Source of the DNA: Copranaerobaculum intestinale
GTDB taxonomy: Bacteria; Bacillota_I; Bacilli_A; Erysipelotrichales; Erysipelotrichaceae
Direction of reading: 5' to 3'
Assembly: GCF_009831105.1 (NCBI RefSeq)
Contig: NZ_WUUQ01000006.1
Coordinates: 30,001-62,000 of the forward strand
DNA length: 32,000 nucleotides
Under the pieces are notes generated by a model. That model ran no database searches, was not told where the DNA came from, and was given only the letters and a program-made list of their open reading frames with translations. This document shows, piece after piece, positions 3,605 through 9,581 of the stretch; within the stretch, counting starts at the first letter, position 1; each line of letters begins with the position of its first letter. The position numbers and the translations under genes are program-made.

Positions 3605-4135
3605 ATGGATTTACAAAAATGGTATAAGGAAAAACGGTGCATTGTAGGCGATGGAATCGTTCTGCATCCGATTACAGAAGCGGATGTGGATGATATCTTT
3701 GCGAATTTCACAAAGCCCGTCACAAAATATATGTATCCGGCAGCACCAAAGGATAAGTCAGAAACGGAAGCGTTCGTTTATGGAGCGGTACGAGGCTGGC
3801 AATGCGGGATTGAAACAGTGTTTATCATCCGTGATAAGGAAGGCGGGTTTATCGGCTGTGTCGGACTTCATGGAATTTTATGCGGTCATCCGGAAATTGG
3901 AATCTGGACAAGTGAAAAGGTTCGGGGACATGGATATGGAAAACAGGCGGTGGAGCTGGCGGTCAGATTTGGACGGGAAATGCTGAAGCCGGACTATTTT
4001 GTATATCCGGTCGATCACCGCAACGGACCAAGCCGCCGTATTCCCCTGTCGATGAACGGCAAAGCGATGCGTGAATTTACCTATGAAAATAAAAGCGGTG
4101 ATACACTGGAAATGATCGAATACTGGATCGATTGA
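3605..4135 (+). CDS. GNAT family N-acetyltransferase (RimJ/RimL-like)
   Basis: 176 aa with SD AAGGAGAA. Typical GNAT core IGCVGLH...GHGYGKQAVELAVRF. Confidence 0.8.
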   Translation: MDLQKWYKEKRCIVGDGIVLHPITEADVDDIFANFTKPVTKYMYPAAPKDKSETEAFVYGAVRGWQCGIETVFIIRDKEGGFIGCVGLHGILCGHPEIGIWTSEKVRGHGYGKQAVELAVRFGREMLKPDYFVYPVDHRNGPSRRIPLSMNGKAMREFTYENKSGDTLEMIEYWID

Positions 4136-4155
4136 GAGAATCTCTGGGAGGAAGA

Positions 4156-4665
4156 ATGATGACGGTATTGGAGTGTATAGAAGCAAGGAAAAGCATACGG
4201 AGTTTTGAGGCAAGAGAGATCGAAGCGGAAAAGCTGGATAAGGTACTGGAAGCGGGACGACTGGCGCCTTCGGCATCAAACCGGCAGACATGGAAATTCA
4301 TAGTTGTGCAAAATGAGAACCTGCGCAATAAGATGATTGAAGCATGCTCCAACCAGGAATTTGTCGGTGAAGCTCCGGCGATACTTGTGGTATGTGCAGA
4401 ATCACATTTGATGCGGTGTCAACAGGATGCAGCGACGATTGATGCGTCGATCTCATTATCCTTCATGATGCTGGAGGCACAAGAACAGGGCTTGGGAACC
4501 TGTTGGATCGGAGCATTCTATGAAGAAAAGGTCAGAAAGCTGTTAAAAGTGCCAACTGAATATCAAATTGTGGCGCTGACACCGATCGGTTATCCGGCAG
4601 AAACTGGTAATAAACATTTGCGGAAGGATCGAAGCGAAATAGTTTCTTACGACAGTTTTCGTTAA
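4156..4665 (+). CDS. Nitroreductase family protein
   Basis: Motifs RKSIRSF, APSASNRQTWKFIVV and GLGTCWIG. Start moved to ATG 4156 (SD GGGAGGAAG just upstream) from the track start at 4132. Confidence 0.85.
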   Translation: MMTVLECIEARKSIRSFEAREIEAEKLDKVLEAGRLAPSASNRQTWKFIVVQNENLRNKMIEACSNQEFVGEAPAILVVCAESHLMRCQQDAATIDASISLSFMMLEAQEQGLGTCWIGAFYEEKVRKLLKVPTEYQIVALTPIGYPAETGNKHLRKDRSEIVSYDSFR

Positions 4666-4815: not shown

Positions 4816-4844
4816 TTGACGGTCTGACAGATGTTTGCTATACT
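4816..4844 (+). promoter_or_regulatory. Sigma-A type promoter for the ABC-F leader
   Basis: TTGACG (4816-4821), 17-nt spacer, TATACT (4839-4844). Confidence 0.55.
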
Positions 4845-4868
4845 GAAACCAACGTTAGGAGTGGAAAG

Positions 4869-4886
4869 ATGAGAAATAAAGGATAA
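4869..4886 (+). CDS. Candidate 5-codon leader peptide (MRNKG) of the ABC-F attenuator
   Basis: ATG AGA AAT AAA GGA TAA, preceded by AGGAGTGG with its core about 7 nt upstream. It lies between the promoter and the terminator at 4959-4984. Confidence 0.4.
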   Translation: MRNKG

Positions 4887-4958
4887 TTGAGAAAAACCAA
4901 ATCTGTTTCGGTCTTACAATTATCTTTTTTCATGCCTGCCACAATGCAATATAGAAGG

Positions 4959-4984
4959 AAAAGGACGGTAAGCGTCCTTTTTTT
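4959..4984 (+). terminator. Intrinsic terminator (attenuator) 17 nt upstream of the ABC-F start codon
   Basis: AAAAGGACG-GTAAG-CGTCCTTTT stem-loop followed by a run of 7 T. The SD GGAGG for the ABC-F gene lies immediately after the T-run. Confidence 0.7.
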
Positions 4985-5000
4985 CGTGGAGGTGATGTTT

Positions 5001-6548
5001 ATGCTCAATCTGCTCAATGTTAAAATCCGGCATCAAAACGGAGATTTATTAATAGATACATTAAATTTACAGGTTCATGAACACGATCGGATCGGGATTA
5101 TCGGTGAAGAGGGTAATGGAAAATCCACTTTGCTGAAAGCGATCGCTGATTTATCATGGGTAACAGATTATGCAGGTATTGAAGGAACGATATGTAAGGA
5201 ACGAAATTTAAAAATCGGATATTTTGCTCAGGCACTGGAACCGATTTGGAAGGATACACTGATTTATGAATATTTATTAAAATCGTCTCCTGAAGCAGAG
5301 GTAAAACAGGAACAATACAATGAACTGCGGGAATATGCCAAGGAAGCGCAGCAGTTGAAAATGGACGTTGAACTATTACAGCGCGATCAGTTGATCGTTC
5401 AGGCCAGCGGCGGGGAAAAGGTAAAGCTGCGATTCTTGAAAATGCTGCATGAGCAGCCGGATATTCTATTGCTGGATGAACCGACAAACGATTTGGATTT
5501 GGATACGCTGGGCTGGCTTGAAAGCTTTATGCTGGGATGTACCAAGCCGATATTGTTTATTTCACATGATGATGTGCTGCTGGAGCGCTGTGCTAACCGT
5601 ATTATTCATATTGAACAGCGTAATCACCGAACCAAACCGGTAACTACGGTTGCCAATACTTCTTATCGGGAGTATATCGAATCACGCGGCATGCGATTGG
5701 AACGAGAACAGCAGCAAGCAAAAAAAGAGAAAGCGGAGTATATCAAGAAAAAGGTCAAATTAAACGATTTGAAAAATGCGGTGCATGATGCGCTGAATGA
5801 TACGGTCAGAAGTCCGTTCTATGCGGCTGGATTGGCTCGCCGTATGGCCAATCTAAAGGCTGTGGATAAACGCTTTGAAAATGTTGGTTATTCACGGGTG
5901 GATACCGTAGAGGAAGCAATCGATATTGGTTTTAAAGTGGCGCCGTTACCAACCGGTAAAATTATTTTAGATCTGGATCGTCCTGTGATAGGCGTGGGGA
6001 ACCGCGTACTGTTGGAGAATGTCCGTTTACTGATTCGCGGCAGGGAAAAGCTGGCTTTGGTTGGCCCTAATGGCTGCGGTAAGACAATTTTTATGAATCA
6101 AATTTATGAATTATTAAAGGATCGTCCAGATATTTGCGTCGGTTATATGCCGCAGGATTATGCTAGGGCATTTGCTGGATTTGATTCTCCGGTTGCATAC
6201 CTTTTAAACGCTGGTGATAAGGATGATGTTACCCGCAGCCGTGACCTATTGGGAAGGATGAAATTCACTGCCGATGATATGCTGAGACCCTGTGCTTCGC
6301 TGTCAGAAGGACAAAAAGCAAAGCTGTGCCTGCTGAAATTTATCAAGGAGGACTGCAATGTACTTTTGCTGGATGAACCGACTCGTAATCTTTCAGCACT
6401 GAGTGCCCCGACAATTTGCCGTATTCTCGCCGATTATCAGGGCTGTATGTTTTCTATCAGCCATGACCGTACCTTTTTGCGGTCATGTGCAGATACTATT
6501 TATGAAATCAAGGATCGAAAATTGGCGGTTGTAAACAGTATTTTATGA
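5001..6548 (+). CDS. ABC-F family ATPase, Lsa-like (candidate ARE-type ribosomal protection protein)
   Basis: Two ABC cassettes and no TM region. Cassette 1: GEEGNGKST, SGGEKVKL, LLLDEPTNDLD. Cassette 2: GPNGCGKT, LSEGQKAKL, LLLDEPTRNLS. A basic interdomain linker of about 80 aa (QQQAKKEKAEYIKKKVKLNDLKN...GLARRMANLKAVDKR) separates them. Start set at ATG 5001 (or 4995), after SD GGAGGTG. The track start at 4887 would read through the terminator. Confidence 0.85.
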   Translation: MLNLLNVKIRHQNGDLLIDTLNLQVHEHDRIGIIGEEGNGKSTLLKAIADLSWVTDYAGIEGTICKERNLKIGYFAQALEPIWKDTLIYEYLLKSSPEAEVKQEQYNELREYAKEAQQLKMDVELLQRDQLIVQASGGEKVKLRFLKMLHEQPDILLLDEPTNDLDLDTLGWLESFMLGCTKPILFISHDDVLLERCANRIIHIEQRNHRTKPVTTVANTSYREYIESRGMRLEREQQQAKKEKAEYIKKKVKLNDLKNAVHDALNDTVRSPFYAAGLARRMANLKAVDKRFENVGYSRVDTVEEAIDIGFKVAPLPTGKIILDLDRPVIGVGNRVLLENVRLLIRGREKLALVGPNGCGKTIFMNQIYELLKDRPDICVGYMPQDYARAFAGFDSPVAYLLNAGDKDDVTRSRDLLGRMKFTADDMLRPCASLSEGQKAKLCLLKFIKEDCNVLLLDEPTRNLSALSAPTICRILADYQGCMFSISHDRTFLRSCADTIYEIKDRKLAVVNSIL

Positions 6549-6573
6549 AAGTAATGAAAATGAATGGAAACGC

Positions 6574-6601
6574 TTGCATAAATCATAATTTAGCGTACAA
6601 T
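6574..6601 (+). promoter_or_regulatory. Sigma-A type promoter upstream of the uORF/ankyrin/EF-G2 unit
   Basis: TTGCAT (6574-6579), 16-nt spacer, TACAAT (6596-6601). Confidence 0.5.
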
Positions 6602-6635
6602 AAGAGTATACTAAGAAGCGAGAGGAGTGGGCATC

Positions 6636-6719
6636 ATGAATCAAACATTGACTGTTCACAAGGTTAATAAGAACCCTGATAATGTCCTCTACTTTTATGC
6701 GGTTTTAAAACGGATGTAA
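6636..6719 (+). CDS. Candidate 27-aa leader peptide MNQTLTVHKVNKNPDNVLYFYAVLKRM
   Basis: ATG 6636 has SD AGGAG 8 nt upstream. The last four codons form the 5' arm of the terminator at 6707-6744, and the TAA stop sits in its loop. Confidence 0.45.
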   Translation: MNQTLTVHKVNKNPDNVLYFYAVLKRM

Positions 6720-6744
6720 TGCGAAAGCGTGCGTCCGTTTTTTT
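6707..6744 (+). terminator. Intrinsic terminator (attenuator) between the uORF and the ankyrin gene
   Basis: AAAACGGATG (6707-6716) pairs with CGTCCGTTTT (6732-6741), with one G-U pair and a 15-nt loop. The T-run extends to 6744. Confidence 0.7.
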
Positions 6745-6782
6745 ATCAGAGATTTTGATCTATTGAAAAGGAGGAATTTAAT

Positions 6783-7451
6783 ATGGATCAGATGAACAAG
6801 GCTTTCTGGGAAGCAGCTGCAAATGGTGATTTTACAACAATTTGTGCAGAGGTAAAAAAAGGTACTGACATTAACTATCAAAACGGTGACGGACGTACTG
6901 CCTTAATGCGCAGTGCTAAACGTGGTTATAAAGATATCGTTCGCGTTTTGCTGGATAATGGTGCAGATGTCAACCTTGAAGATAATTCCGGAAAGACGGC
7001 AATCATGGGAGCAGCGAAAAAAGGTCATAAAACGATCGTTAAGAAATTGATTGAAGCAGGTGCGGATGTCAACAAGCAGGACGATCGCGGCCGCAATGCG
7101 CTGATGCGTGCTGCATTCCTCGGCCAGGATCGCGTGGTTACTGTGCTGCTAGACGCCGGTGCTGATATTAATACACAGGACGAAGTGGGAAGAACTGCTT
7201 TGATGGAAGCATGTGTTGCTTTTAAAATGGATACGATCAAGCTGTTGGTTGAACACGGCGCTGATCTGAACTTATGTGATAATAATGGATGTACAGCGCT
7301 GATGCGCGCAGCGTATGCCGGCTATCGTGATTTGGTTGAATATCTGCTGGATCATGGTGCAGACAAGGAGCTGTTGGATAAAGAAGGTAGAAAAGCGGTT
7401 CATTACGTTCGTGAACACTGTCTTGACGAACTGAAACCGATTTTGAAATAG
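6783..7451 (+). CDS. Ankyrin-repeat protein, cytoplasmic (about 6 ANK repeats)
   Basis: Repeated 33-aa units of the form xGRTALMxAAxxGxxxIVxxLLxxGADVNxxD, for example DGRTALMRSAKRGYKDIVRVLLDNGADVNLED and NSGKTAIMGAAKKGHKTIVKKLIEAGADVNKQD. No signal peptide. Strong SD AAAGGAGGAA. Confidence 0.9.
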   Translation: MDQMNKAFWEAAANGDFTTICAEVKKGTDINYQNGDGRTALMRSAKRGYKDIVRVLLDNGADVNLEDNSGKTAIMGAAKKGHKTIVKKLIEAGADVNKQDDRGRNALMRAAFLGQDRVVTVLLDAGADINTQDEVGRTALMEACVAFKMDTIKLLVEHGADLNLCDNNGCTALMRAAYAGYRDLVEYLLDHGADKELLDKEGRKAVHYVREHCLDELKPILK

Positions 7452-7465
7452 GAGGGCTGGCGGAT

Positions 7466-9547
7466 ATGAGAGACTATTTAGCCCATGAAGTTCGCAATGT
7501 ATCAGTTTTAGGACACAGCGGTGCCGGCAAGACAGCGGTGCTGGAAGCGATGCTCTATTTTACCAAGGCAACAGATCGTTTTGGAAAAACCAAAGAGGGA
7601 AGCTCTTTGATCGATTATGACAGTGAAGAAATACGCCGCGGCATTAGTGTTTATACATCGCTTGTGCCGATTGAATGGAAAGAGAATAAAATTAATTTTA
7701 TCGATACACCAGGTTATCTGGATTTCGTCGGTGAAAGTGAAGCCGGCGTTGCGGTTGGTGATAATGCGTTAATTGTAGTAGGTGCGAAGGATGGTGTGCA
7801 GAGCGGTACCCAGAAGGCATGGGAAGAAGCGCAGTCGCGTAAGCTGCCGACGATCTTCTTTATCAACAAGCTGGATGAGGAGAACGCATCCTTTGACAGC
7901 GCCTATCAGAATCTGCGTGATGTATTTGGAAAGGCGGTTATTCCATTTGAGGTACCAATCGTTGAAAATAATGAAATTATCGGTTCTGTCAATATTTTAA
8001 GAGATAAGGCATGGTATTATAAGGGACCTTTGGCTGATCCGGAAAAAGCCCAGCCGGTACCTGAAAATATGGTGGATGTGGTAAACGGATATAAAGATCA
8101 GATTGCAGAAGCAGTCGCCATGGGTGATGATGAACTTATGGAGAAATACTTTAGCGGAGAACCGTTCTCAGAGGCTGAATTGACGCGCGGGGTGCGCATC
8201 GGTGTTCGCAGCGGTGAAATTCGTCCCGTATTCAGCGGCAGCGCCGTTCAAAGCATCGGCATAGAACGTTTGATGGATCTGATTGTGAAGTATTTCCCTG
8301 CTTATGGTGAAATGGGAAGCTTTGAAGCAATGGATCTGGCTAAGCATGAACCGGTGATCTTAGAGACGAATGAAAAGGAAACTATGACTGCGCAAGTATT
8401 CAAAACAATCATAGATCCGTTTGTCGGCCGCATTTCATATCTGAAAGTTTGTTCCGGAGTGATGAGTGCTGATTCGCAGGTGTATAATCCAAAACAAGAT
8501 CGTACCGAAAAGATCTCACAATTGTTTATTATCAAAGGAAAGCATCAAACCGCTGTCGGGAAATTGTTTACCGGTGATATTGGAGCGGTGGTAAAGCTTC
8601 AGAGTACGCTCACTAATGATACCTTGTGTGATAAAGACAGTCGTATCGTACTAGCAGATATCCCGTTTTCTGAACCGATGCTAGGTCAGGCAGTTTATCC
8701 GAAATCAAAGAATGATGAGGATAAGATGAGTAATGCCCTGCAGCGCATGTGCGAAGAAGATCCGACATTGAAATTGATCAATAATAAAGAAACCAGAGAA
8801 ACAGTCTTATATGGAGTTGGTGATCAGCATATTGATGTTGTATTAGCCAAACTAAAATCAAAATATAAAGTGGAAGTAATCCTGCGCGATCCTAAAGTCC
8901 AGTATCGAGAGACCATTCGTAAAAAAGTAATCGGTGAAGGGCGGCATAAGAAACAAACCGGCGGACACGGACAGTTTGGACATGTGTTCGTAGAGTTCGC
9001 GCCTAATCCGGATGAAGTGGAAATGGTGTTTGATGAAAAAGTATTTGGCGGAGCAGTGCCGCGTCAATACTTCCCGGCCGTTGAGACAGGCCTTCACGAA
9101 TGCTGTGAAAAGGGTATTTTGGCAGGATGCAGGGTTGTCAATATGAAAGCAACGCTATTGGATGGAAAGTATCATGATGTCGATTCCAGTGAAATGGCTT
9201 TTAAAATGGCTGCACATTTGGCTTATAAGGACGGCATGACAAAGGCTGAACCGATTTTGCTGGAGCCGATCGTCATTGCCAGTGTAAAAGTACCGGATGA
9301 ATATACCGGCACGATTATGGGTGATTTCAACAAACGCCGCGGTATGATCATCGGTATGGATCTGCAGGACGGCTATCAGCTGATCAAAGCAAGTGTGCCG
9401 CAGGCTGAAATGATGAAATATCCGATTGAGCTTCGTGCGATGACCCAGGGACGCGGAACATATACACAGGAATTTGATCGTTATGATGTTGTTCCTCAGA
9501 ACATTGCAGAGCGTGTGATTGCCAGTGTAAAAAACGATAGTGAGTAA
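7466..9547 (+). CDS. Elongation factor G paralog (EF-G2-type translational GTPase)
   Basis: 693 aa. G1 GHSGAGKT (housekeeping EF-G has AHIDAGKTT), G3 DTPGYLDF, G4 NKLD. The EF-G domain IV/V region is present (HKKQTGGHGQFGHV, YHDVDSSEMAFKMA). It is not in an rpsL-rpsG-fusA-tuf context. The start is 14 nt after the ankyrin stop, with SD GGAGGG. Confidence 0.9.
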   Translation: MRDYLAHEVRNVSVLGHSGAGKTAVLEAMLYFTKATDRFGKTKEGSSLIDYDSEEIRRGISVYTSLVPIEWKENKINFIDTPGYLDFVGESEAGVAVGDNALIVVGAKDGVQSGTQKAWEEAQSRKLPTIFFINKLDEENASFDSAYQNLRDVFGKAVIPFEVPIVENNEIIGSVNILRDKAWYYKGPLADPEKAQPVPENMVDVVNGYKDQIAEAVAMGDDELMEKYFSGEPFSEAELTRGVRIGVRSGEIRPVFSGSAVQSIGIERLMDLIVKYFPAYGEMGSFEAMDLAKHEPVILETNEKETMTAQVFKTIIDPFVGRISYLKVCSGVMSADSQVYNPKQDRTEKISQLFIIKGKHQTAVGKLFTGDIGAVVKLQSTLTNDTLCDKDSRIVLADIPFSEPMLGQAVYPKSKNDEDKMSNALQRMCEEDPTLKLINNKETRETVLYGVGDQHIDVVLAKLKSKYKVEVILRDPKVQYRETIRKKVIGEGRHKKQTGGHGQFGHVFVEFAPNPDEVEMVFDEKVFGGAVPRQYFPAVETGLHECCEKGILAGCRVVNMKATLLDGKYHDVDSSEMAFKMAAHLAYKDGMTKAEPILLEPIVIASVKVPDEYTGTIMGDFNKRRGMIIGMDLQDGYQLIKASVPQAEMMKYPIELRAMTQGRGTYTQEFDRYDVVPQNIAERVIASVKNDSE

Positions 9548-9554
9548 ATACCTT

Positions 9555-9581
9555 AAGACCGATTCATTTCGGTCTTTTTTT
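9555..9581 (+). terminator. Rho-independent terminator of the ankyrin/EF-G2 operon
   Basis: AAGACCGA-TTCATT-TCGGTCTT followed by a T-run. Confidence 0.8.

Follow-up and report, generated by a model that had tools for sequence, protein, structure and literature searches.

An upstream open reading frame that ends in an intrinsic terminator precedes the ankyrin/EF-G paralog operon of Erysipelotrichales

In Copranaerobaculum intestinale (Erysipelotrichaceae), an intrinsic terminator stands between a promoter and the two-gene operon that it serves, which encodes an ankyrin-repeat protein and a paralog of elongation factor G (EF-G), and a short upstream open reading frame (uORF) ends within the terminator hairpin. 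How, then, is the operon expressed, and what part does the uORF play in its expression? We addressed this question in a 32,000-nt stretch of DNA (assembly GCF_009831105.1, contig NZ_WUUQ01000006.1, positions 30,001 to 62,000), hereafter the window, whose numbering is used throughout; the leader was read within 6300-7000, and related loci are designated L0xx. A preliminary description of this DNA had proposed that a ribosome at the end of the uORF blocks folding of the terminator. On the evidence set out below, we are fairly confident that the ankyrin/EF-G operon is gated by a conserved leader that acts in cis and contains a translated uORF, and we cautiously favour the more specific reading that this leader is a ribosome-dependent terminator-occlusion (coupling) attenuator of the two genes.

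Anatomy and conservation of the leader

All elements of the leader, as well as the two genes behind it, lie on the + strand. The promoter (6574-6601) consists of a -35 hexamer TTGCAT (6574-6579), a 16-nt spacer and a -10 hexamer TACAAT (6596-6601), with the transcription start expected at ~6608. A Shine-Dalgarno (SD) sequence, AGAGGAG (6621-6627), the duplex of which with the 3′ end of 16S rRNA has an energy of -13.3 kcal/mol, is placed 8 nt before the ATG (6636) of the 27-codon uORF (MNQTLTVHKVNKNPDNVLYFYAVLKRM; 6636-6719 by direct reading, with the TAA stop at 6717-6719). The terminator occupies 6707-6744 and folds with a ΔG of -17 to -17.9 kcal/mol, the uORF stop lying 10 nt inside its 5′ arm. 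It is followed by the gene for the ankyrin-repeat protein (6783-7451; 222 aa; Pfam Ank_2 and Ank), the first gene of the gated operon, and by that for the EF-G paralog (7466-9547; 693 aa; EFG II type, NCBIfam NF009381). The coordinates given in the preliminary description for the promoter, the SD, the uORF and a 10-bp stem with a T-run each match the sequence; the ankyrin SD (AAAGGAGGAA, 6768-6777), however, which had been put ~38 nt past the T-run, starts ~24 nt after it, and it is the ankyrin ATG at 6783 that lies at 38 nt.

In the fold predicted by ViennaRNA, the lower stem of the terminator pairs A6707-G6716 with C6732-T6741 (10 bp, including one G-U), with a T7 run at 6738-6744, while the upper stem (6717-6722 with 6727-6731) comprises U6717-G6731 and A6718-U6730, a bulged A6719, and then the UGC/GCG pairing under a GAAA tetraloop (6723-6726), so that a hairpin of about -17 kcal/mol is closed by a GNRA cap. 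Because the predicted hairpin extends beyond the 10-bp stem to the tetraloop, the TAA falls in the upper stem and bulge rather than in an open loop, where it had been located before. The consensus scanner missed this terminator, the nominal loop being over its limit. The 183-nt leader as a whole folds with z = -3.1, better than 200/200 dinucleotide shuffles (ViennaRNA). Rfam 15 gave no gathering-threshold match in the window; at permissive thresholds, no hit in 6400-6900 reached an E value below 0.4, and the leader was without a match in 10 representative loci as well.

A survey with the EF-G paralog, taking one genome per species, yielded 80 loci, all in Erysipelotrichales, with EF-G paralogs 63-81% identical; a homologue search with the EF-G paralog protein returned close relatives only, at 74% identity or more. 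The ankyrin gene (55-88% identical) is situated directly upstream of the EF-G paralog gene in 80/80 of these loci. Extraction of the 300 nt upstream of each ankyrin ATG gave 75 usable sequences and 69 distinct leaders. Every one of these contains a uORF of 17-42 codons that begins with ATG (in one case GTG) behind a strong SD; a -10 box resembling that of a promoter and a hairpin with its T-run are likewise present throughout. The overlap of uORF and terminator is kept in essentially all 69, which answers the question, posed in the preliminary description, of whether the uORF is conserved where the ankyrin/EF-G2 pair is retained. Moreover, the promoter-uORF-terminator module accompanies the two genes whichever gene lies upstream. 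In 68/69 leaders, the ankyrin ATG follows the T-run at a distance of just 24-61 nt; there is therefore no room for a separate promoter, and expression of the operon needs read-through. At the level of sequence, this conservation supports the earlier proposal that a uORF overlapping an intrinsic terminator gates the ankyrin/EF-G operon.

The position of the uORF stop relative to the hairpin is subject to a narrow rule. In 62 of the 69 leaders, the in-frame stop falls between -6 and +16 nt from the 5′ base of the terminator; the other two frames have a stop in this range in 2/69 and 3/69 cases, and shuffling leads to an expectation of 5.6/69. When the uORF DNA was clustered at 70% identity, the rule was obeyed throughout in 33 of the 37 clusters. 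The leaders that depart from it belong to an Allobaculum-type clade with long composite hairpins, in which the stop is enclosed by the composite hairpin or the ORF extends across its whole length. Two geometries dominate: either the stop starts 1-2 nt before the stem, its A residues opening the stem (UAA-ACUGGG...), or, in the window's class, it is found 5-14 nt inside the 5′ arm (...CGG AUG UAA). Variants within Holdemanella differ by a frame-shifting 1-nt indel, which displaces the stop from -1 (TAA) to +9 (TGA) but leaves it within the arm. The stem itself shows compensatory changes among relatives in 5 of 8 pairs (MAFFT and RNAalifold on 22 compact leaders).

Because Bacillota typically place terminators a few nucleotides past stop codons (PMC7858274, PMC13323073), we measured, as a control, the stop-to-hairpin distance of the ordinary terminators that follow the EF-G paralog gene in these loci. 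At these gene ends, the hairpin follows the first base of the stop at a median distance of 10 nt, and the operon-end terminator of the window (9555-9576, + strand, consensus scan), which begins 7 nt past the EF-G stop, has this ordinary gene-end geometry. A stop at -2 or deeper was found for 91% of the uORFs (median +5) versus 13% of the EF-G gene ends (Mann-Whitney p = 7e-15). The leader geometry is therefore distinct from that of ordinary gene ends in these genomes, and the statistics of stop position are far beyond chance.

The encoded peptide, by contrast with its frame, is poorly conserved. Among the leaders it displays a loose N-terminal M-(N/K)-x-V-Q-G tendency, the V-Q-G being given by a moderately conserved motif near codons 3-6, GUUCAAGG; its distal residues are rich in F/L/S because the anti-SD CUCUUUU, described below, dictates them, and there is a 1.6- to 1.9-fold enrichment of V, N, Q and F. 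Each of the three stop codons occurs, and the final residue varies (M, F and G among others); neither a C-terminal arrest motif nor a stop context was found to be conserved among the leader peptides. In L081, whose EF-G paralog is 97% identical to that of the window, the first half of the uORF (L081 1674-1730 versus window 6636-6690) differs at 8-9 of 54 nt and at 5 of 13 residues, while the distal half, the terminator and the spacer to the ankyrin gene are identical and the frame stays open; the loop region of helix P1 (see below) evolves unusually fast, yet in frame. That the frame is kept despite the weakly conserved peptide points to selection that keeps the frame open between the SD and the terminator rather than preserving the peptide, which argues against a functional micropeptide. 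One could nonetheless suppose that the uORF is an independent micropeptide gene with its own terminator, or that the hairpin terminates transcription of the ABC-F gene upstream, the ankyrin and EF-G paralog genes being expressed by leakage. Small-ORF genes do exist, and the consensus scan lists no terminator between the ABC-F stop (6548) and 6707. However, apart from the lack of peptide conservation, the module stays with the ankyrin and EF-G paralog genes irrespective of the upstream gene, and a family-wide conserved operon cannot rest on accidental leakage, which makes this supposition scarcely credible.

The promoter had been called reasonable in the preliminary description. Its hexamers and spacer are as stated there and its box is conserved in relatives, but the -35 hexamer agrees with TTGACA at just 3/6 positions, which is why the consensus scan did not list it. 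Its reality is supported by the conservation of AAACGCTTGCA plus TAnAAT in the closest clade, and a TAnAAT box occurs 21-60 nt 5′ of the uORF ATG in 61/69 leaders.

Two further observations concern promoter-proximal sequences. The consensus scan lists a promoter-like site inside the uORF (6655-6683; TTCACA-17-GATAAT, 10/12 matches), a transcript from which would miss the uORF start yet still encounter the terminator; its -10 is weaker (GACAAT) in the 97% relative L081. In L029-L056 (Holdemanella/Faecalicoccus/Dubosiella-type; e.g. L036 and L041), a conserved inverted repeat, GTCCAAnTTGGTAC, lies ~60-90 nt 5′ of the uORF ATG, just 5′ of the -35 region (CTTGATTTGAC), and looks like a transcription-factor operator; the window's clade carries GAAAACGCTTGCA in its place.

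Ribosome position and the folding of the leader

The consequences of a ribosome on the uORF were modelled by masking its footprint (P site -14 to +15) at every codon of 63 leaders and computing the ensemble probability of the terminator pairs. This probability was 0.94 with no ribosome and stayed above 0.9 with the P site eight or more codons upstream of the last sense codon, falling to 0.57 at -5 codons, 0.49 at -4, 0.32 at -3, 0.10 at -2, 0.02 at -1 and 0.007 at position 0, where the stop codon is in the A site. In these folds the terminator is abolished solely when the ribosome occupies the stop or one of the last ~4-5 codons, and no pairing that competes with the terminator appeared at any upstream ribosome position. 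The modelling thus leaves steric occlusion of the 5′ arm as the sole route by which translation would act, in agreement with the blocking of terminator folding envisaged earlier.

The same folds bear on a stalled-ribosome attenuator of the classical kind, as known from erm, vmlR or trp, in which arrest within the uORF, caused by an antibiotic or at hungry codons, would free an antiterminator. That the genes concern the ribosome, and that the neighbouring ABC-F gene has a leader of this kind, speak for such a device. However, masked-footprint folding at every codon gave no antiterminator, and the antiterminator-based candidate was rejected; the amino-acid composition of the leaders revealed no attenuation-type runs of regulatory codons; and classical amino-acid attenuators keep the terminator more than 20 nt from the leader stop, thereby avoiding the effect of the ribosome (PMC4824070), whereas here the two overlap. 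We therefore regard a classical attenuator as very improbable.

Other helices are predicted in the leader in addition to the terminator. P1 joins the region of the SD, spacer and AUG to the distal uORF; in the window, its 5′ strand (6614-6627), which includes the uORF SD, is opposed to a 3′ strand (6685-6696) with the anti-SD UCCUCUACUUUU (minimum-free-energy fold and duplex energies). Across the 69 leaders, the P1 duplex energy was -18.8 kcal/mol for the leader's own partner, compared to -13.6 for cross-locus and -12.9 for dinucleotide-shuffled partners, the own duplex being lower than the control in 63/69 leaders (p ~1e-11). When the SD core was left out, the spacer and AUG gave -7.9 with their own partner versus -5.7 cross-locus and -6.1 shuffled. 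Covariation in P1 is visible as GGGAGUGGUU/AAUCACUCUU, GGGGUGAUGA/UCAUCAUCCC and GAGGUGGUUUCC/GGAAACCGGCCUU. The P1 hairpin is followed by a U-run, and the two could constitute a pause hairpin. The 10-bp helix P3 (6754-6792), formed by UUUGAUCUAU (6754-6763) and AUGGAUCAGA (6783-6792), covers the ankyrin start codon and loops out the ankyrin SD; in 66 leaders its energy was -6.7 kcal/mol versus -3.4 for shuffled sequences (lower in 63/66, p = 5e-12), and it may add translational control of the ankyrin gene.

A further pairing, P2, was seen in the distal uORF of compact leaders (L043, L045, L048, L034, L033, L056, L052, L029, L030 and L064), where the anti-SD CCUC(U) and a GAGG 3′ of it can pair locally in a small hairpin (e.g. 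GCCUCUUUUUUGAGGC) just before the uORF stop. P2 excludes P1 when formed and is absent from the window's clade.

Combined with the masked folds, these helices suggest how terminator occlusion might operate. Following initiation near 6608, the uORF SD and AUG would emerge, and a ribosome could load only until the anti-SD in the distal uORF is transcribed and folds back as P1. With no ribosome on the last ~4-5 codons or the stop during transcription of 6727-6744, the hairpin would form and transcription would terminate at the T-run, making OFF the default state; were a ribosome to reach the end of the uORF in time, its footprint would extend over the 5′ arm (6707-6722), no hairpin would form, and the polymerase would enter the ankyrin and EF-G paralog genes. 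The leader would thus report on the distance at which the first ribosome trails the polymerase and on how long that ribosome remains at the uORF end. Probably, P1 confines leader translation to a co-transcriptional window and silences the terminated leader RNA, a role that would be paralleled by the E. coli trp leader, which is described as sequestering its own ribosome-binding site, while P3 would provide a translational layer at the ankyrin start codon. From this architecture we infer translation of the uORF and occlusion in vivo; the physiological signal sensed might be the speed of the polymerase (NTP pools), the supply of free ribosomes in the short P1 window, or dwell in termination or recycling.

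The geometry also constrains the sign of the response. In E. coli, a terminator 5 nt past a stop codon works at <10% efficiency, compared to ~90% at >27 nt (PMC4824070), and Li et al. 2016 (PMC4824070), citing in vitro work, report that slowing by fusidic acid raises termination at a terminator 7 bp past a gene. The preliminary description had held that slow translocation raises read-through; because slowed elongation raises termination, such a feedback has the wrong sign for a leader in which stop and terminator overlap, as a globally slow ribosome lags behind the polymerase. Extra dwell on the last codons or the stop, through slow termination or recycling, could possibly raise read-through. 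A homeostatic scheme follows the loop proposed in the preliminary description: slow translocation, termination or recycling would be sensed, and a ribosome lingering over the 5′ arm, at the last codons or the stop, would bring about compensatory induction of the EF-G paralog. Almost every leader has its stop at the 5′ arm or within it, which would make a terminating or post-termination ribosome the main occluding species, and the regulated gene encodes a paralog of EF-G, a factor that participates in ribosome recycling. However, if elongation slows globally, the ribosome comes late to the stop, and termination should rise (PMC4824070), and the leaders share no C-terminal arrest motif or stop context. 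Such homeostasis is, in our judgement, distinctly doubtful.

Several considerations weigh against terminator occlusion by the leader ribosome itself. Bacillota are classed as organisms with "runaway transcription", in which ribosomes trail the polymerase (PMC13323073, PMC7858274), and the runaway signature is present at ordinary gene ends in the window. The ribosome would have to cover 27 codons within ~110 nt of transcription, for which a polymerase pause would be needed; the NusG-type pause motif TTNTTT is found in 23/69 leaders versus 10 expected, and is thus enriched, though far from universal. Sequestration of the uORF SD by P1 could make leader translation rare. As for P1, an ungapped, SD-anchored register test of its flanks was negative (0.42 paired, versus 0.40-0.47 for slid and 0.43 for cross-locus controls), so that P1 rests on the gapped duplex-energy tests only; MAFFT and RNAalifold on the 22 compact leaders recovered the terminator alone, and not P1, because the 3′ strand of P1 is out of register in the alignment; and P1 is weakest in the window's own clade. 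Both translation of the uORF and termination at 6742-6745 we infer from the sequence. Finally, for the tet(M) leader of Tn916, the closest precedent in architecture, a preprint reports no leader-peptide toeprint and a start-codon replacement inconsistent with a role of the leader peptide (bioRxiv 10.1101/2021.03.24.436905).

A rival reading is an attenuator independent of translation. In that case the terminator would fire regardless of the uORF, read-through being constitutive or set by a trans-acting binder (a protein, an sRNA, or the product of the ankyrin or EF-G paralog gene) at P1, the P1 loop or P3, and the uORF would affect just the folding or stability of the leader RNA. The classification of Bacillota as runaway (PMC13323073, PMC7858274) and the doubt cast on the tet(M) leader peptide (bioRxiv 10.1101/2021.03.24.436905) are in its favour, as is the fact that ordinary genes in these loci tolerate terminators 7-10 nt past their stops; the conserved P1 and P3, and the motif GUUCAAGG, could then serve as binding sites. 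Yet it leaves unexplained why an open frame encoding a non-conserved peptide runs from an SD-preceded ATG to the terminator in 69/69 leaders and 37 clusters, and why the stop reaches significantly further into the hairpin than it does at ordinary gene ends. We consider translation-independent attenuation unlikely, if far from negligible, and retain terminator occlusion by the leader ribosome as the reading we favour.

The regulated genes and comparable leaders

The EF-G paralog scores 873 bits on NCBIfam NF009381 (cutoff 583), and stays below the cutoffs of tet_protect NF012153 (332 vs 775 bits) and of NF058620, a Bacteroides subgroup (558 bits, cutoff 1000). Compared to T. thermophilus EF-G, it keeps the motifs G1 GHSGAGKT, G3 DTPG, G4 NKLD and the domain IV loop GGHGQFGH, and its G2 reads RGISV in place of RGITI. 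Relaxation of the G2 RGITI, with G1, G3 and G4 kept, is the hallmark of EFG II, a Clostridia subgroup of which has RxxSI, and EFG II genes are reported to be accompanied in every case by a canonical EF-G in the genome (Margus et al. 2011, PMC3150367). In addition, switch II residue 84 is Tyr in place of the catalytic His, which is otherwise universally conserved (DTPGY vs DTPGH), and DTPGY recurs in 56/56 orthologs in which the motif was read; among solved structures, the switch-II region is closest to those of TetO and TetM, which keep the His. The altered G2, judged by the published criterion (PMC3150367), and the His-to-Tyr replacement both bear out the label "EF-G2-type" that the protein had been given, and DTPGY suggests, from sequence, that ribosome-stimulated GTP hydrolysis is altered or absent. 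PADLOC, applied to the ankyrin and EF-G paralog proteins, reported generic ankyrin similarity only.

Knowledge of what induces the leader would indicate when cells need the alternative EF-G, and the leader offers access to two genes that are strictly conserved, though uncharacterised, in abundant gut commensals (Holdemanella, Faecalibaculum, Dubosiella, Amedibacillus and Erysipelothrix relatives). If occlusion by the ribosome is correct, it would be the first family-wide, comparatively supported case of terminator occlusion by a leader ribosome in Bacillota, which are regarded as transcribing far ahead of their ribosomes and in which the tet(M) precedent is contested. At ~140 nt, the leader is also a compact part, with design rules that can be read from 69 natural variants. 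Rather more speculative, and in our view improbable, is the proposition that it is a dedicated sensor of translation kinetics relative to transcription (the lag of the pioneer ribosome, or the dwell of a terminating or post-termination ribosome at the stop), in a phylum regarded as uncoupled, that switches on the His-to-Tyr EF-G paralog and its ankyrin partner; if true, this would constitute an Erysipelotrichaceae-specific feedback or feed-forward loop on the state of translation, and would imply that the EF-G/ankyrin pair serves translation that is slow or under stress, or the recycling of ribosomes.

Full-text searches for the ankyrin and EF-G operon, for leaders of EF-G paralogs and for leaders with overlapping stop and terminator in Firmicutes returned nothing specific. 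The principle of terminator occlusion is known; new here are an architecture with a stem-embedded stop, a self-sequestered SD and a helix added over the ankyrin start, as well as the lineage and the genes controlled. The pyrBI attenuator of E. coli exemplifies the principle, with coupling enforced by a pause (PMC4824070). As in the pyrBI leader and the rph-pyrE attenuator, the ORF reaches the terminator hairpin, a U-rich stretch precedes the terminator, and the device works without an antiterminator, since a ribosome that follows the polymerase closely keeps the hairpin from folding by steric hindrance, as is proposed here. The leader ORF of pyrBI runs through the attenuator, whereas the stop is embedded in the stem in our leaders. 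Moreover, the latter belong to a Bacillota family and not to enterics, precede ankyrin and EF-G paralog genes and not genes for pyrimidine synthesis, and have a uORF SD sequestered by the distal uORF, while UTP-sensitive pausing is a feature of the pyr systems.

With E. coli tnaC the leader shares a ribosome at the leader stop codon that would block termination just downstream. There, the ribosome blocks Rho loading, and a conserved arrest peptide responds to tryptophan as its ligand; here, the terminator is an intrinsic hairpin and no conserved arrest motif was found in the leaders.

The closest architectural likeness is to the orf12/Ptet region of tet(M) in Tn916, likewise from Firmicutes, where a leader ORF of ~28 codons overlaps terminator structures upstream of a gene of the EF-G superfamily. 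For that leader, Su, He and Clewell 1992, as related in bioRxiv 10.1101/2021.03.24.436905, proposed that faster leader translation leads to antitermination. The downstream gene here, however, encodes no ribosomal protection protein, the system is chromosomal and family-wide rather than mobile, and an ankyrin gene is interposed. The analogy with tet(M) drawn in the preliminary description is thus apt as regards architecture, but it leans on a leader-peptide role that has itself been questioned (bioRxiv 10.1101/2021.03.24.436905). Leaders of antibiotic-resistance ABC-F genes (B. subtilis vmlR, PMC9226507, and the ABC-F gene of the window) also place a short uORF and a terminator before the gene of a ribosome-associated factor, and in the vmlR-type leader of Bacillota polymerase pausing is needed (PMC9226507); they combine a mini-uORF far upstream of the terminator with an antiterminator, neither of which is present in the ankyrin leader. 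Dedicated control of a non-canonical EF-G in a gut commensal is further known from Bacteroides fusA2 (EF-G2), which is controlled by the transcription factor BT4338/Cur on carbon limitation and whose product supports GTP-independent translation (PMC10294740); no leader-peptide attenuator is described there, and the protein belongs to a different EFG II subgroup.

The upstream ABC-F gene and its leader

Upstream of the ankyrin leader, the window encodes a GNAT acetyltransferase (3605-4135), a nitroreductase (4132-4665) and an ABC-F ATPase (5001-6548, with the true start at ATG 5001). The ABC-F protein scores 271 bits on ribo_prot_ABC_F, below the cutoff of 380. Its gene has a leader of its own (4816-5003), with a promoter TTGACG-17-TGcTATACT (4816-4844), an SD AGGAGTGG, a 5-codon mini-uORF MRNKG (4870-4887), a helix between the mini-uORF and UUAUCUUUUUUCAU, and a terminator AAAAGGACGgtaaGCGUCCUUUUUUU (4959-4985) followed by an SD GGAGGTG. 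A U-rich segment could pair with the terminator arm GGAAAAGGA as an antiterminator, and by its sequence this leader appears to be a classical attenuator in its own right, with the layout typical of antibiotic-resistance ABC-F genes.

In the window, L081 and L083, the ABC-F gene immediately precedes the ankyrin leader; it is reduced to remnants in L082 and is one gene away in L050. This neighbour is kept in the window's closest relatives only and is absent in the wider family. As no terminator lies between the ABC-F stop and the leader terminator, induced ABC-F transcripts would enter the uORF leader.

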